A stretch of 10,982 nt of DNA from Chthoniobacterales bacterium (GTDB lineage Bacteria > Verrucomicrobiota > Verrucomicrobiia > Chthoniobacterales > Chthoniobacteraceae): NCBI GenBank assembly GCA_038207335.1, contig JBBQZX010000048.1, forward strand, positions 1-10,982, in the 5' to 3' direction. The position numbers were made by a program, and so were the translations under genes. Under the pieces are notes generated by a model. That model made no database searches, was not told where the DNA came from, and worked only from the letters and a program-made list of their open reading frames with translations. Below are positions 5,841-10,982 of the stretch, piece by piece; positions within the stretch are counted from its first letter, which is position 1; every line of letters begins with the position of its first letter.

Positions 5841-6827
5841 TTATAAATCCAAGATCCGCTCTTCTCCCCGCGCATTCTTCCACGGTGCGCGGAGGATGTC
5901 CTCGTGCGCCTCGATCGTTGCCAGATCGGTGGCCAGATAGAAGTTGGGCTGACGGTCACCGCTTGCCTGCTTCGCGGCTTCGACCATGCCGGCCACTCTC
6001 CCCTGCCCCTTCGCGGTCACGGTGAGCACGCGAAAGCCGCGGAAGCCGAAGCGCTGTGTCTGGATGGATTGGGCGTGGGTCGCCTGGTAGGCGAAGTACT
6101 TGTGGAAGAGCGTCGGCTTCCTGGTGTTCAGCAAGTTCTCCGGTGCAATCGTCTCGGAACCGCGATCGGCCTCGAGCATGAACCACAGCCGGTTCTTGCC
6201 CTCCGGCTCGTCGAGAAATTGCAGGCCGAACACCTTGTCCGGCACCACCGGCAAGCGGAGCTGGGTGCCCTCCCATGGCGCTTTAATCTGCCAGGTGAAC
6301 GGCGTCCTCGCCCGACGCACCTCTTCGGCCGCGCCGGCCAGGATCTCGCGCGGCGAGATGAGGCGGACGTTGCCGCGCCGTTTGCACATGCGCTCGAAGG
6401 CGAGCATGACGTCGGCGACGAGGAGCGTGTGTTCGACGTGACGACTGCCGACCTCGCGGTTCTTGTCGCGCCAGCGGGTGCGGCCGACGGCAATGCCGGC
6501 CTCTTCGGTGAGGAAGCGGGCACCCTTGTCGCCGAGCGCGTAGACCGTCGGCCGGGCGCCGGATGCCGAGCGGTACGCCCACTGCTCTTCGGGCCGGTCG
6601 AGGAATCCAATGTCGTAGAGCGCGCGCAGCCGGCGGAGGGTCTGCTGCTCGCTCCAACCATGGAGGAGCAACAGCGAGGTGATGTGCGAGGAGCGGAGGA
6701 AGCGGTATTCGGCAACGAGCCGCACGATCGCGGCGTCGCGTTCGGTAACCTCGACACGCTCGACCTCGCCGCGTGGCCGGCGCCTGAAGCGGGGAGCGCG
6801 GTGGGGTGTCTCGTTTGGTGCCTCCAT
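5841..6827 (-). CDS. Replication-relaxation (Replic_Relax, MOBC-like) relaxase, 328 aa
   Basis: N-terminal wHTH: TERDAAIVRLVAEYRFLRSSHI..RRLRALYDIGFLDRP..VYALGDKGA. It also has HTLLVAD and a PD-(D/E)xK-like nuclease motif VVPDKVF...FMLEADRGSE. Start placed at ATG 6827 (MEAPNE), where coding-like composition begins. Confidence 0.92.
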   Translation of the reverse strand: MEAPNETPHRAPRFRRRPRGEVERVEVTERDAAIVRLVAEYRFLRSSHITSLLLLHGWSEQQTLRRLRALYDIGFLDRPEEQWAYRSASGARPTVYALGDKGARFLTEEAGIAVGRTRWRDKNREVGSRHVEHTLLVADVMLAFERMCKRRGNVRLISPREILAGAAEEVRRARTPFTWQIKAPWEGTQLRLPVVPDKVFGLQFLDEPEGKNRLWFMLEADRGSETIAPENLLNTRKPTLFHKYFAYQATHAQSIQTQRFGFRGFRVLTVTAKGQGRVAGMVEAAKQASGDRQPNFYLATDLATIEAHEDILRAPWKNARGEERILDL

Positions 6828-7050: not shown

Positions 7051-8325
7051 TTACTTACCCGACCACCTTTCGATCTTCCCCTCGACCTCCGCCCGCGGCC
7101 GGCAGAAGTGCCGGCGGGAACGCGCGGCGGCGAGCTCCCGCCGGCCAACGTCTGTCTCGAGAGGTGGAAGCGTTCGCGCGAGAAAGGGCTCGCGCACTTC
7201 GCCACCGGTCATGAGTTTGACACACACCTCGAACCGCGACAATTCGAGCAAGGTCGTCGCCGGATAGGGAGCGAACTCACGCTCGAGCAAGGGCGCGTCC
7301 TGGGCGCCAAGGCGGAAGGCGATCATGGTGCCGACGTTGCCGAAGACGGCGGCGGCGATCTCGTCCGGAAGCTGGTCGAGGTACTGATGGGCCAGGGTCA
7401 GGTGAAGCCCGTACTTGCGGGCCTCGGAGAGCAGATCGGCGAAGCTCGTGGTGGTGAAGGCATGGAACTCGTCGACGACGAGGTGGAAGGGTTCGCGCAT
7501 CGCTTCCGGCATCTCGGCGCGGGCGAGCGCCGCGGTGGCGAAGCTCGAGACGATGAGCGAGCCGAGGAAGTTCGCCTCCTGCTCGCCGAGCGCGCCCTTG
7601 GCCAGGTTGGCGATCAGGATGCGGCGGTTGTCCATGGCGAAGCGCGGATCGAAGGCGCGCCGCGCCTGGCCGAGAATGGCGCGAAGGGCCGGATTGCCGA
7701 GGAGCGCGCCGACCTTGTTCTGCAGCGGCGCGATTGCTTCGGCGCGAAAGCGCTGATCCCAGCGGCCGAACTCGTCTTGCCAGAACGACCGCACCCGGAC
7801 GTCGTCGGCGTAGCCAACGACCCGCTCACGGTAGGCCTCGTCGGCGAGCATCCGCGACACACCGAGGAGCGACACCCCCATCCCCGGGGGACAGGAGAGC
7901 AGGGCGGCCAGGGTGTTGTAGGCGATGTACTCACTGCGCGGCCCCCAGCTGTCGGCGAACAGGTGGCGGAAGATCGCGGTCACGCTCGAGGCGACATACG
8001 GCCGCCGCTCCGGGGGCACATGGGCGAGCACGTTCCACGAGAAGGCGAAGTCCGGGTCGGCGGGATCGAGGTAGGCGACCTCATCGAGCCGGTGCGGTGG
8101 AATGCAGTCGAGCAGGGCCTCGGCCTCGTCGCCGTGCGGATCGATGAAGGCAAAGCCCCTGCCCGCCTCGATGTCCTGGACGAGGAGGTTATGGAGCAGG
8201 GTCGTCTTGCCCGAGCCCGAGCGGCCGATGATCCAGCAGTGGAGCGCCCGGTCGCGTTGGGAAAGACCGACGGGTATCTCCCCGTCCCAGAGCGGCCGCA
8301 TCGCAATGTAAGAAGGATTGTCCAT
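7051..8325 (-). CDS. Type IV secretion coupling-protein-like ATPase (TrwB/TraD/HerA-FtsK superfamily), no N-terminal TM anchor, ~424 aa
   Basis: Motifs H.WIIGRSGSGKT (Walker A), FIDPHGD, HLVVDEFH (Walker B), EARKYGLHLTLAHQY and FGNVGTMIAFRLG. Start placed at ATG 8325 (MDNPSY). Confidence 0.92.
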   Translation of the reverse strand: MDNPSYIAMRPLWDGEIPVGLSQRDRALHCWIIGRSGSGKTTLLHNLLVQDIEAGRGFAFIDPHGDEAEALLDCIPPHRLDEVAYLDPADPDFAFSWNVLAHVPPERRPYVASSVTAIFRHLFADSWGPRSEYIAYNTLAALLSCPPGMGVSLLGVSRMLADEAYRERVVGYADDVRVRSFWQDEFGRWDQRFRAEAIAPLQNKVGALLGNPALRAILGQARRAFDPRFAMDNRRILIANLAKGALGEQEANFLGSLIVSSFATAALARAEMPEAMREPFHLVVDEFHAFTTTSFADLLSEARKYGLHLTLAHQYLDQLPDEIAAAVFGNVGTMIAFRLGAQDAPLLEREFAPYPATTLLELSRFEVCVKLMTGGEVREPFLARTLPPLETDVGRRELAAARSRRHFCRPRAEVEGKIERWSGK

Positions 8326-8327
8326 AC

Positions 8328-8524
8328 CGCGAAGCCAGCCGCCGCGGCTAACCCGGGTATGAGCACCAAATGGGAAGCATGCTGATCCCCGAGTAACTCC
8401 GCTGCGTGTTCCCATTTGCGTGGCCGACGCCCGAGATTTGGGTGCTCTCGGCGACGGCCCGGAGTTCGCCGGCATGCGGTTCTTGGTGTGACCGGCCGGC
8501 GAGGTAGCGGAGGCTGGCTTCGCG
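8328..8524. other. Multibranch structured element in the coupling-protein 5' region
   Basis: Closing stem 8328-8345/8507-8524 (17 of 18 bp). Inner stems: 8367-8376/8409-8418 (10 of 10), 8424-8458, 8353-8357/8458-8462 and 8466-8473/8495-8502 (8 of 8). Confidence 0.7.
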
Positions 8525-8550
8525 AGACGATGAAGTTGTGTAGTTCCTCC

Positions 8551-8559
8551 ATTCTACCA
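8551..8559 (-). promoter_or_regulatory. Putative extended -10 promoter for the coupling-protein gene
   Basis: Minus strand TGGTAGAAT, just outside the structured element. Confidence 0.5.
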
Positions 8560-8599
8560 CGCCATCCCCCGCCCCCTTCTCTCTAACCAGTTGATAACT

Positions 8600-8627
8600 T
8601 TGACGAATTTCAGTCATTTGCTACTCT
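8600..8627 (+). promoter_or_regulatory. Putative sigma70 promoter of the primase gene
   Basis: TTGACG-16 nt-TACTCT with a TGn extension. An imperfect palindrome, TGACGAATTTCAGTCA (8601-8616), overlaps the -35. Confidence 0.55.
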
Positions 8628-8665
8628 CTTGTGTAGATTGTACATCCGCACAAGGAAGCAACCCC

Positions 8666-9694
8666 ATGGCGAACAAGAGCTGGTATGACTTCAGGGAGAT
8701 CAAACAGCACGGCGACTTCCTCGCCGTGCTCGCCCACTACGACATCGAGGCCACCGGCAAGGGCGCGCGGCGGAAAATCCTCTGCCCGTTCCACCCGGAG
8801 CGAAAGCCGTCGTGCACCATCAACCTCGAGCGCCGGCTGTTTCACTGCTTCGGCTGCGAGGCCGGCGGCGATCTGCTCGACTTCGTGATGCGCAAGGAGG
8901 CCTGCACGGCGGCCGACGCCGCCCGGATCGTGGCTGCGTGCTCGAACATCGCGCCGGTGGCGCGTGAGGGAGCGCGTCAGCGCGCAAAATCGCTCCCAGA
9001 AGCGCGACAAGAGCCGCGGCCAGACAAAACGTCGTCGAATGCGGAAAAACCGCTCCACGGGCCTCCTGTGCGCCCAGGCAAGGAGAAAGCCGAGAAGGAG
9101 GAGAACAAACCCCTCGCCTTCACCCTCAAGCTCGACCCGGCGCATCCGTACCTGGCCCTGCGCGGCGTGACGCCCGAGCTCGCCGCGACCTTCGGCCTTG
9201 GCGCTTGCGCCAAGGGCCTGCTGCAAGGGCGGATCTGCATTCCGATCCACAACGAGGCAGGCGCGCTCGTCGCCTACGCCGGCCGCTGGCCCGGCGACGA
9301 CGGCTGGCCCGTGGGCGAGGACAAGTACAAGCTCCCGGCCAACTTCAAGAAGAGCCATGTGCTGTTCAACCGGCACCGGGTCGAAGGGGCAACGCGCCTT
9401 GCCCTCGTCGAGGGCTACTGGTCGGTCTTCCGGCTCCATGCGCTCGGCATTCCCGCCGTGGCACTCATGGGCCGGTCGCTCTCCGCCGAGCAGGAAGAGC
9501 TTCTCTCCGATCACGGCGCCGATCGCCTCATCCTTCTCCTCGACGGCGATGCGCCGGGGCGGGCGGCCACGGCCGAGCTCCTCCCCCGCCTCGCCCGCCG
9601 GTTCTTTGTCCTTACCCCGTCATTGCCGGACGGCGCGGCACCGGATACGGTGGCCGCCGAGTTCTTCGATCCACCCAACTTTTTCGTGCGCTAG
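8666..9694 (+). CDS. Mobile-element DNA primase (zf-CHC2 + Toprim), DnaG-like, 342 aa
   Basis: Zinc finger CPFH..RKPS..FHCFGC..GGD, then GRICIPIHN..G.LVAYAGR, KY..P..FKKSHVLFN, and Toprim LVEG...VALMG...LLLDGDAPG. SD AAGGA precedes ATG 8666. There is no DnaB-binding C-domain, so this is not the chromosomal dnaG. Confidence 0.92.
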   Translation: MANKSWYDFREIKQHGDFLAVLAHYDIEATGKGARRKILCPFHPERKPSCTINLERRLFHCFGCEAGGDLLDFVMRKEACTAADAARIVAACSNIAPVAREGARQRAKSLPEARQEPRPDKTSSNAEKPLHGPPVRPGKEKAEKEENKPLAFTLKLDPAHPYLALRGVTPELAATFGLGACAKGLLQGRICIPIHNEAGALVAYAGRWPGDDGWPVGEDKYKLPANFKKSHVLFNRHRVEGATRLALVEGYWSVFRLHALGIPAVALMGRSLSAEQEELLSDHGADRLILLLDGDAPGRAATAELLPRLARRFFVLTPSLPDGAAPDTVAAEFFDPPNFFVR

Positions 9695-9700
9695 CACGAC

Positions 9701-9732
9701 CCCCCGCGCGCTTTGGCGTCGCGGGGGCTTTC
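9701..9732 (+). terminator. Probable intrinsic terminator after the primase gene
   Basis: CCCCCGCG-CGC-tttg-GCG-t-CGCGGGGG followed by CTTTC, 6 nt after the stop. The U-tract is weak. Confidence 0.55.
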
Positions 9733-9738
9733 TGATTC

Positions 9739-10509
9739 ACGGGGTGGTGGGCGGGGATGCGTCTCCTCCCCTGCATTCCTGCATTGTGGTGCGTGGGTGA
9801 CCACGCAACCCGGGTCGCCCTCCGGCGACACCCCGTTTCCGCGCGGGTCGTCGGGCCGGATTGCTCCACGAGACGCGCCTCGCGGCGAGTGGGAGCGCAG
9901 CGTAGCGGAGCGATAGCAATCCGGAAGCGCTAGCGCCCGACTTCGATGGTTTCGGTCGACGTCCACCGCCCGCCCAAGGGAGAGAGGACGGAGACCCGGA
10001 GCGCGCTACCGGACGCCTTTGCCCGGCAAAGGTGTTCGCTAGCGAGCGGAGCCGATGGTTCGAGCCGCCTATCGGACACTTTAGTGTTTGATAGCCGGCT
10101 GGAACCATCGGGAAAGCATCGAAGTCGGGCGGTAGCACGACGACCAGCGCGGAACCCGTACGGCTTGCAATCGCAAGCCTTTTGCGCCAATCGGCGCACC
10201 ACGAGCCCCTACATAGCTAGGATTGTAGGGGCTTTTGTCGGGGCAAAGGCCCCCGCTAGGGCGGCCTGCACCGACAATCCGTGAGCCTTCCCGCGAGCGT
10301 CAAGGACAACCGGACGGCTTCGCTGTTCGCTTGGACGCAGGCACGAGGCGGAAGGCTCACCCCTTCCCTTCGCGCCGTTGGCGCGAGAACCGGTTACGGA
10401 AAAAGGATCGGGGCGGCGGTCATGGACGGACGGCGACGACGCACAAGGCACGGCAACCGGACAGGTTCCCTGCTCCGCTTGCCGTGCTGTGGTGCAGTCG
10501 GTTCGATCC
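9739..10509 (+). other. Large, densely structured non-coding region (candidate single-strand origin or large ncRNA)
   Basis: Nested stems: 9739-46/9829-36, 9837-53/10138-54 (16 of 17), 9856-65/9915-24, 9929-53/10112-36 (23 of 25), 10013-35, 10052-10111, 10162-79, 10183-98, 10204-33, 10235-41/10271-77, 10281-91/10350-60, 10370-86, 10405-10/10504-09, 10437-10500. No credible ORF. Confidence 0.8.
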
Positions 10510-10772
10510 GTGGTTTGGTTAGCGCTTGGTGTTGTGTTCGTGCGGGTGCACGCCACGCGTCAGTGCCGCGGCCATGGTGTCCGCCACCAAACCAAAGGCC
10601 TTAGCCAACCCGAGATGGGCCGGCGACATCGGCTCATCGTAGAGCCCCTGATTGATCTCGAAAAAATCCCGTAGATCGACTTTGCTGAGCATGGATGTCT
10701 CCCGTAAAGCCGCATTTCGTCTACTCCGCACGCTAGATGGATCATGATTGCCGGCGCACAAGGCACGGCAAC
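10440..10772 (+). repeat. 18-bp perfect direct repeat CGCACAAGGCACGGCAAC, two copies
   Basis: Identical copies at 10440-10457 and 10755-10772. The core GGCACGGCAA also occurs at 6878-6887. Confidence 0.9.
10519..10692 (-). CDS. Putative small protein (57 aa, MLSKVDLRDFFEINQGLYDE...)
   Basis: SD-like GGGAG 7 nt before ATG 10692, TAA at 10519-10521. It occupies the one weakly structured gap in the right-hand region. No family recognised. Confidence 0.45.
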   Translation of the reverse strand: MLSKVDLRDFFEINQGLYDEPMSPAHLGLAKAFGLVADTMAAALTRGVHPHEHNTKR

Positions 10773-10799
10773 AGCCTGCGCCGGTGTGGTGTGGTCGGT
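10751..10799 (+). other. Candidate oriT/dso (hairpin plus nic-like sequence)
   Basis: The CCGGCGCA/TGCGCCGG stem (10751-58/10777-84) carries the repeat core in its loop and is followed by GTGTG|GTCGGT (10789-10799). Confidence 0.4.
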
Positions 10800-10982
10800 G
10801 GGATACTGTCGCGGACTTTCGGAGCGGCGGATTGGGGGAAAACGGATCGATCCTCGGGAAGGCGACCATCCCGGTGATCCGCCGGATGCTTTGCGGGGTT
10901 TCTTCACGGGTGGCGCCCCAAGTCGCGCCGCCATGCTTCACCAAGGCCGGGAGCGGCCGGGCTCTCCCTGCCGGATCAGAGC

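Follow-up and report, generated by a model that had tools for sequence, protein, structure and literature searches.

What is the densely folded stretch that lies directly behind a small primase gene in this genome, and does it act as RNA or as single-stranded DNA? The window analysed here, 10,982 nt long, is the entire contig C48 of the source genome G000, and its features are collected in Table 1. An earlier note had described positions 9739-10509 as a single array of about 770 nt whose stems cover most of the bases, and had left the choice between an ssDNA origin (ssi) and a large ncRNA.

Table 1. Features of the window discussed in the text
Feature	Coordinates	Strand	Evidence or remarks
MOB_C-type relaxase gene (Replic_Relax, PF13814)	5841..6827	-	Pfam E 6e-21
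VirD4/TrwB-like coupling ATPase gene, start codon uncertain	7051..8325	-	Pfam TrwB_AAD_bind above cut-off
Long-range inverted repeat, candidate oriT or leader	8328..8524		18-nt arms, 94% complementary; local z -5.4
Stand-alone DnaG-type primase, 342 aa	8666..9694	+	CHC2 zinc ribbon, flexible linker, Toprim (Pfam)
G+C-rich hairpin with short T-rich tail, right after the primase stop	9698..9737	+	terminator-like by eye
Variable 5' array of short hairpins with C-rich loops	9744..9836	+	folds; many variants and indels in close relatives
Conserved core	9837..10154	+	homology to L198/L203, covariation, few variants
Overlapping GCGNAGC / GCGNNAGC mini-hairpin motifs	9895..9917	+	one further at 10046
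3' hairpins with inverted plus direct TGTA(C/G)-type repeat (10203-10244)	10162..10277	+	order kept in L198, L203
Further hairpins, to the divergence point of several close relatives	10281..10408	+	relatives' contigs
Rod from the earlier note, outside the conserved module	10437..10500		partial direct repeat at 10752-10804

A conserved core within variable hairpin arrays

The stretch 9739-10509 folds beyond chance. Measured against dinucleotide shuffles, none of 20 being as stable in any of the four comparisons, the + strand reached -455 kcal/mol as RNA (z -13.9) and the - strand -423 kcal/mol (z -9.6), and as DNA the z values were -11.8 for + and -11.0 for -. The strongest local fold of the window is found at 9934-10383 (local z -11.5), and a 150-nt scan agrees. 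Stems do cover most of the stretch, as had been claimed: the MFE structure has 24 helices of at least 5 bp and 74% of its bases are paired. Every stem, wobble and mismatch that had been named was recovered, the stems including the two proposed to close a multibranch domain of about 320 nt (9837-53/10138-54 and 9929-53/10112-36), the rod 10052-10111 and the pairing 10447-61/10474-88. The mismatches said to interrupt the rods are also present (C.C at 10068/10095 and 10457/10478, G.G at 10062/10101), but the G.G, like a G.A at 9845/10146, is not conserved and is replaced by a pair in close relatives. Similarly, the G.T pairs on which a strand asymmetry had been based exist (at 10013, 10015, 10074, 10075, 10313, 10316 and 10447/10488), but the excess is small, with 6 confident G.T pairs on + and 1 on -. 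Rfam 15 gave no match to 9739-10509 even at E<=5, in agreement with the lack of a recognised family, and no significant match to cores from 8 sources or 14 loci. No Pfam match was obtained for ORFs overlapping the fold.

The stretch is not one unit, being a conserved core of about 320 nt with variable hairpin arrays around it; the module spans about 9736-10408. The array is thus real, but its right boundary had been drawn too wide, as relatives' contigs in runs X7, X9 and X19 stop matching at 10408, with the rod replaced, whereas X10 and X20 continue with the rod. Since several relatives diverge at this point, the rod falls outside the conserved module, and variants in the rod region (10431-10509) have no strand preference. 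Within the core, the stem P1 (9837-53/10138-54) encloses a junction from which P2 (9856-9924) and P3 (9929-53/10112-36) branch, and P3 closes three arms of its own (9954-96, 10001-47 and 10052-10111). Tandem G.A/A.G pairs occur in P2 and in the first arm. The 5' hairpin arrays are longer in L198, L203, L205, L207, L209 and L214 than in the window, and the TGTA(C/G)-type repeats on the 3' side are possible protein-binding repeats. Hairpins resembling the one after the primase stop are found at the same place in L013, L015, L203, L205, L207 and L209; in the window this hairpin is absent from the terminator-scan output. Beyond the module, a degenerate direct repeat (10437-10507 / 10752-10804) flanks a - strand ORF of 56-57 aa (10519-10689), for which NCBIfam gave no match.

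The + strand is the folded strand

Because MAFFT misaligned the variable arms, base pairs were counted on motif-anchored helices, with anchors that we chose from the sequences. L203, which has no G.A pair in inner P2, was left out of the table for that helix, and L203 and L207 were left out of the first-arm table. Counted in this way the homologs covary, 15 of the 51 columns of window-type helices being compensatory and 169 of 186 cells Watson-Crick. Fourteen of the 17 remaining cells are tandem G.A/A.G and none is G.T. The tandem G.A is kept in P2 in five of six loci, and it is kept in the first arm as well.

Natural variants were obtained from close relatives in public runs (40 of 57 rows, and 2 further rows). 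Of 40 listed variable positions, 22 are unpaired against a background in which 73% of positions are paired (p 1.4e-4), and 9 fall in the 318-nt core compared with 31 in the surrounding 423 nt. The 18 listed substitutions at paired sites comprise nine that give G.T on +, one A.C, one Watson-Crick pair and seven that break the pair. Since variants avoid paired positions and yield G.T on + nine times against a single A.C, + is the folded strand, which bears out the suggestion of the earlier note; indeed, whichever energy set is used, + is the better-folding strand in all six whole cores. A possible alternative source of the C>T excess on + is deamination of an exposed + strand, and either origin points to +. 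The structure is real, conserved, strand-specific and uncatalogued.

Given these results, a REP/MITE-like repeat cluster or G+C-rich DNA that folds by chance and serves no single function, a reading to which the flanking arrays lend something by varying in number and holding repeated hairpin units, is very improbable and already largely refuted by the compensatory changes, by the strand-specific tolerance of variants, by the single copy of the fold in G000 and by a core with neither terminal inverted repeats nor repeated units.

The primase and its mobile-element context

In the primase, the zinc ligands C40/H43/C61/C64 and the acidic residues E249, D293, D295 and D327 are conserved in 55-57 of 57 aligned rows, and the structure model has a pLDDT of 88, the linker being of low confidence. 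In both sequence and fold it comes closest to 2au3, an Aquifex DnaG fragment that comprises the zinc-binding and polymerase parts. The protein ends where this fragment ends and is without a helicase-binding domain; its catalytic residues are intact. Among 8000 candidates scored, 921 relatives were found at E<=1e-30 and none of 600-2000 aa at E<=1e-70, the latter being weak evidence. A -10-like hexamer lies upstream of all six primase genes inspected. Among unpaired triplets, the candidate start sites of the primase, on the + strand of 8 elements, CCC is the commonest (38) and CTG occurs 3 times, with only 1 CCC in the three Rhodobacteraceae elements. Primase-relative contigs at 9183-9356 have a very high summed depth in X7, one activated-sludge RNA library, although contigs cannot show expression.

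The VirD4/TrwB-like ATPase and PF13814 relaxase genes run divergent from the primase gene. The ATPase also has weak NCBIfam TraD/VirD4-like matches below cut-off, and PF13814 denotes MobC, the MOB_C relaxases (PMC5357655). Among primase loci from named genomes, the 24 closest were inspected: 17 have a VirD4-like and/or MobC gene within 5 kb, and 10 have both. With a PF13814 relaxase and a VirD4-like coupling protein together in the window, the element would be MOB_C mobilizable and would pass through ssDNA, to judge from the known roles of these gene families. Neither an integrase nor att ends nor a replicon was found on the 11-kb contig; the related locus L243 carries a tyrosine recombinase, and a tRNA 3' fragment, marking an element end, lies about 200-300 nt from the core in L015 and L219. 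The long-range inverted repeat of Table 1 is located in the divergent virD4/primase region, and arms resembling its own occur in L207 and L209. In these same two loci the divergent region also holds short direct repeats at 11-nt spacing. Related XerD-like recombinases occur near Rhodobacteraceae-type cores, as a remnant at L241:3013-3318 and whole at L243:6718-7698, and L243 has a second VirD4-like gene and restriction/SIR2-like defence cargo.

The alternative posed at the outset, an ssDNA origin or a large ncRNA, was a sound one as far as strand, absence of an Rfam family and covariation are concerned, but it made no use of the neighbouring mobility genes. The adjacent primase, VirD4-like protein and MOB_C relaxase tilt the choice to ssDNA.

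Related loci and the frequency of the core

A metagenome scan with the primase motif led to 20 loci. In five metagenomic loci a homologous core follows the same primase, whole in L198 and L203 and as a 5' part running to the contig end in L205, L207 and L209; the contig of L214 ends just before the core position. The window can be aligned collinearly to both L198 (z 5.2) and L203 (z 5.5), beginning at P1 and including the 3' hairpins, with scores that none of 200 shuffles and none of 200 GC-matched genome segments reached. In contigs of runs X3 and X6 an L203-like P1 arm leads into window sequence that starts at 9849, and these contigs bridge the window type and the L203 type. Independent profile searches gave weaker results: a covariance model that excluded the window hit its core in the right register, but only at E 0.13 and rank 2 of 44, and an HMM that likewise excluded it missed the core.

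A second core type with the same basic junction is found in Rhodobacteraceae, behind the primase in L013 and L015 and without it in L219. These cores covary internally (8 of 34 columns; 21 of 74 pairs), and the sequence likeness of the window to the three of them is not significant (z 0.8-2.3).

Overall, within the DNA available for each locus, a core was found at 7 of 75 primase loci (subsets 2/24, 5/20, 0/25, 0/5 and 0/1), a count in which subsets may overlap and to which the contigs of L208 and L214 contribute although they end too early to show a core. The distant primases of Verrucomicrobiota and Acidobacteriota have no core nearby. Core and primase therefore do not co-occur constantly, and the core of L219/L241 has no primase within the 2 kb remaining on the contig. 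In 7 of the 8 other core loci, the core comes after this primase gene too, with the orientation unchanged. One clade (support 0.96) unites the metagenomic primases that have a core; L199 falls inside it without a core, and the window primase falls outside it at a weakly supported position.

DNA homologs of the fold were found neither in PLSDB plasmids (where one match covered the tRNA part only) nor in phages, nor in 60 relatives, nor by pattern in 250 genomes of the phylum. Viral pattern scans returned 0, 0 and 0 matches, 50 matches with no homolog and 2 matches with no homolog. Among 18 other genomes matched, only G952 (L219) held a homolog; L220 was inspected and rejected, and the rest were matches of 21-37 nt. 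A pattern match in G1408 was discarded as a chance match in a probable coding stretch, and L034 as a false match beside chromosomal dnaG. At L028:5968-6490, behind a frameshifted primase, lies a highly structured block of repeated hairpins, which is different and was not accepted as a homolog. Other arrangements follow the primase stop elsewhere: in L197, L201, L204, L206, L210-L213 and L216, which form another primase group, the place of the core is taken by a hairpin together with a small conserved ORF (about 80 aa), and then by a conserved inverted-repeat block, and in the acidobacterial L297 and L298 an ssb-like ORF (by eye) comes right after it, which fits an ssDNA-handling module.

DNA or RNA

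Separating ssDNA from RNA motifs by computation is described as hard (PMC5737381), and the clues that we have lean to DNA. Only 28 of 1017 confident pairs (2.8%) in 8 elements are G.T, compared with 37 of 694 (5.3%) in the 45 genes for tRNA and tmRNA that G000 has; in random windows the share is 8.9%. In addition, GCGNAGC is enriched on the + strand only: 10 elements together have 15 copies on +, where 5.2 are expected (0 of 500 shuffles reached 15), and 5 copies on -, where 3.5 are expected, and in the window region 9736-10410 it occurs 4 times on + against 0.7. Three related loci account for nine of the 15, and the three Rhodobacteraceae cores have none. Such mini-hairpins form in DNA only with GNA triloops, the RNA counterpart is far less stable (39 vs 76.5 C), and they are present at the G4 origin and at ssiA (PMC13037366). 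One upstream hairpin carries a GCA, GAA or GGA triloop in L209, L205 and L207. The third clue is the missing -10-like hexamer, none being found between the primase stop and P1 in 7 of 10 loci.

This last observation also counts against the reading of the core as a new + strand ncRNA of about 320 nt with a multibranch fold, which would arise by transcription running on past the primase gene or starting at a promoter that escaped recognition, possibly with small RNAs bearing C-rich loops upstream. We consider this somewhat unlikely. Nested junctions, of which there are two here, are usual in RNA, as are tandem G.A pairs and linkers rich in purines (A or G makes up 244 of 356 unpaired bases); G.T variants are tolerated; and over the whole stretch + is favoured more by RNA than by DNA energies. 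The C-rich loops may resemble the anti-Shine-Dalgarno loops of small RNAs. In L198 and L214, moreover, the first hairpin is followed by a stretch rich in A+T that contains a -10-like hexamer. Set against this, a hairpin that looks by eye like a terminator stands between the primase mRNA and the core, no long U-tract closes the core, no G.U occurs in 288 cells of the conserved helices, loops of 3 nt make up 15 of 60 confident hairpins, and an Rfam match is lacking. If the core were an RNA nonetheless, it would be an uncatalogued large multibranch ncRNA. In the RNA libraries X7, X10, X19 and X20, contigs run over core, primase and flanks at similar depth (X7: 27.9 vs 30-36), which is no evidence either way because contigs cannot show expression and such libraries may contain DNA.

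A proposed initiation site for second-strand synthesis

The reading that we prefer, and which we hold to be about evenly balanced between right and wrong, is that the core is an ssDNA initiation site of a mobilizable element, primed by the element's own primase. More tentatively, a family of MOB_C elements may carry a cognate pair, in which a shortened DnaG primase devoid of the helicase-binding domain works with a branched ssDNA fold of 200-320 nt that directly follows its gene and replaces the helicase as loading platform. In such a scheme, the relaxase would nick the element and the + strand would be displaced or transferred. The core would then adopt a stable shape, containing tandem G.A pairs and GNA mini-hairpins and resistant to melting by SSB, and would recruit the primase in place of a DnaB helicase. 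The primase would lay an RNA primer at the core for second-strand synthesis, which a host polymerase would extend toward lower coordinates. Element-encoded primases are described as one of three routes to second-strand synthesis (PMC4595007). Were oriT to lie in the divergent region 8326-8665, which is a guess, the primase gene and core would enter first; in ICEBs1, sso1 is located downstream of oriT (PMC4595007).

A different possibility is that the core is an ssDNA signal for host enzymes, such as RNA polymerase as at Frpo/sso or a PriA-type primosome, or a part of the MOB_C oriT, and that its adjacency to the primase reflects element layout only. In its favour, most primase relatives lack a core and the L219 core lacks a primase, and the core lies close to the tRNA 3' fragment in L015 and L219. 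Moreover, short repeats at 11-12 nt spacing after the core in the window, L198 and L203 recall the bind site of TraX, a MOB_C protein that binds direct repeats 70-120 bp from nic (PMC12857230). We nevertheless judge it unlikely, given the constant position and orientation of the core behind the same primase in all but one of the other core loci. A scan for a sigma-70 hexamer pair found 0 sites at 9 of 12 in 8300-10982, but it is insensitive and also misses the primase promoter. Nor did it show -35/-10 hexamers inside a folded stem, as they lie at Frpo.

Comparison with known systems

The complementary-strand origins of G4, St-1 and alpha3 are likewise folded ssDNA with mini-hairpins used by a DnaG-type primase (PMC13037366). 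There, however, the enzyme is host DnaG and the hairpins are few and small, whereas here a short element-encoded primase is found beside two nested junctions over 320 nt, with priming only proposed. RSF1010/R1162, with RepB' and ssiA/ssiB, offers a second likeness, a mobile element that has its own primase and its own folded ssDNA site (PMC13037366, PMC4595007). Its ssiA measures 40 nt against the 320-nt core, and no plasmid in PLSDB showed similarity at the DNA level. RepB' is not known to be a DnaG/Toprim enzyme, and the cognate pair, if true, would be a DnaG counterpart of RepB'/ssi. By analogy, the core would work like a G4- or RSF1010-type ssi, yet it is not assignable as a member of either because priming is only predicted and co-occurrence with the primase is patchy.

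ICEBs1 sso1 and the sso of rolling-circle plasmids share a strand-specific multi-hairpin region and an ssDNA phase after relaxase nicking (PMC4595007), but they recruit host RNA polymerase or primase, whereas here an element primase adjoins, and no sequence likeness was found. The Frpo/ssi single-stranded promoters similarly comprise a few hundred bases folded on one strand in a conjugation context (PMC11541004). In contrast to these, we found no -35/-10 pair and identified no gene placed for transcription from the core. The plasmid motifs ARRPOF, GEBRO and PAGEV and the ROOL and GOLLD RNAs are described as covarying motifs of 223-349 nt that may be ssDNA, and as large multi-junction folds (PMC5737381); their gene context differs from that of the core, which has no Rfam match at E<=5. 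Lastly, the MOB_C modules of CloDF13, pAD1 TraX and the streptococcal IME_Class_8 likewise combine a PF13814 relaxase with a VirD4-like coupling protein, and the passages that describe them make no mention of a stand-alone DnaG primase or a branched fold (PMC12857230, PMC5357655).

We found no description of a primase-plus-fold module in the text of open-licence papers. It is understood for only a handful of plasmids and ICEs how a transferred single strand gets primed once in a new host. Packed into about 1.5 kb, a small primase with its site would give a little-studied class of MOB_C elements a priming module that is open to direct test and possibly independent of the host. If the cognate pair is true, the core would also be unusually complex for a natural DNA fold, with non-canonical pairs that are conserved, and it would rank among the rare ssDNA structures that exceed a hairpin in complexity.

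A second structured stretch of the window, at 2376-2803 beside a DUF3768 gene, has a local z of -7.4 and contains a near-perfect inverted repeat (2616-2660), which is probably a terminator.
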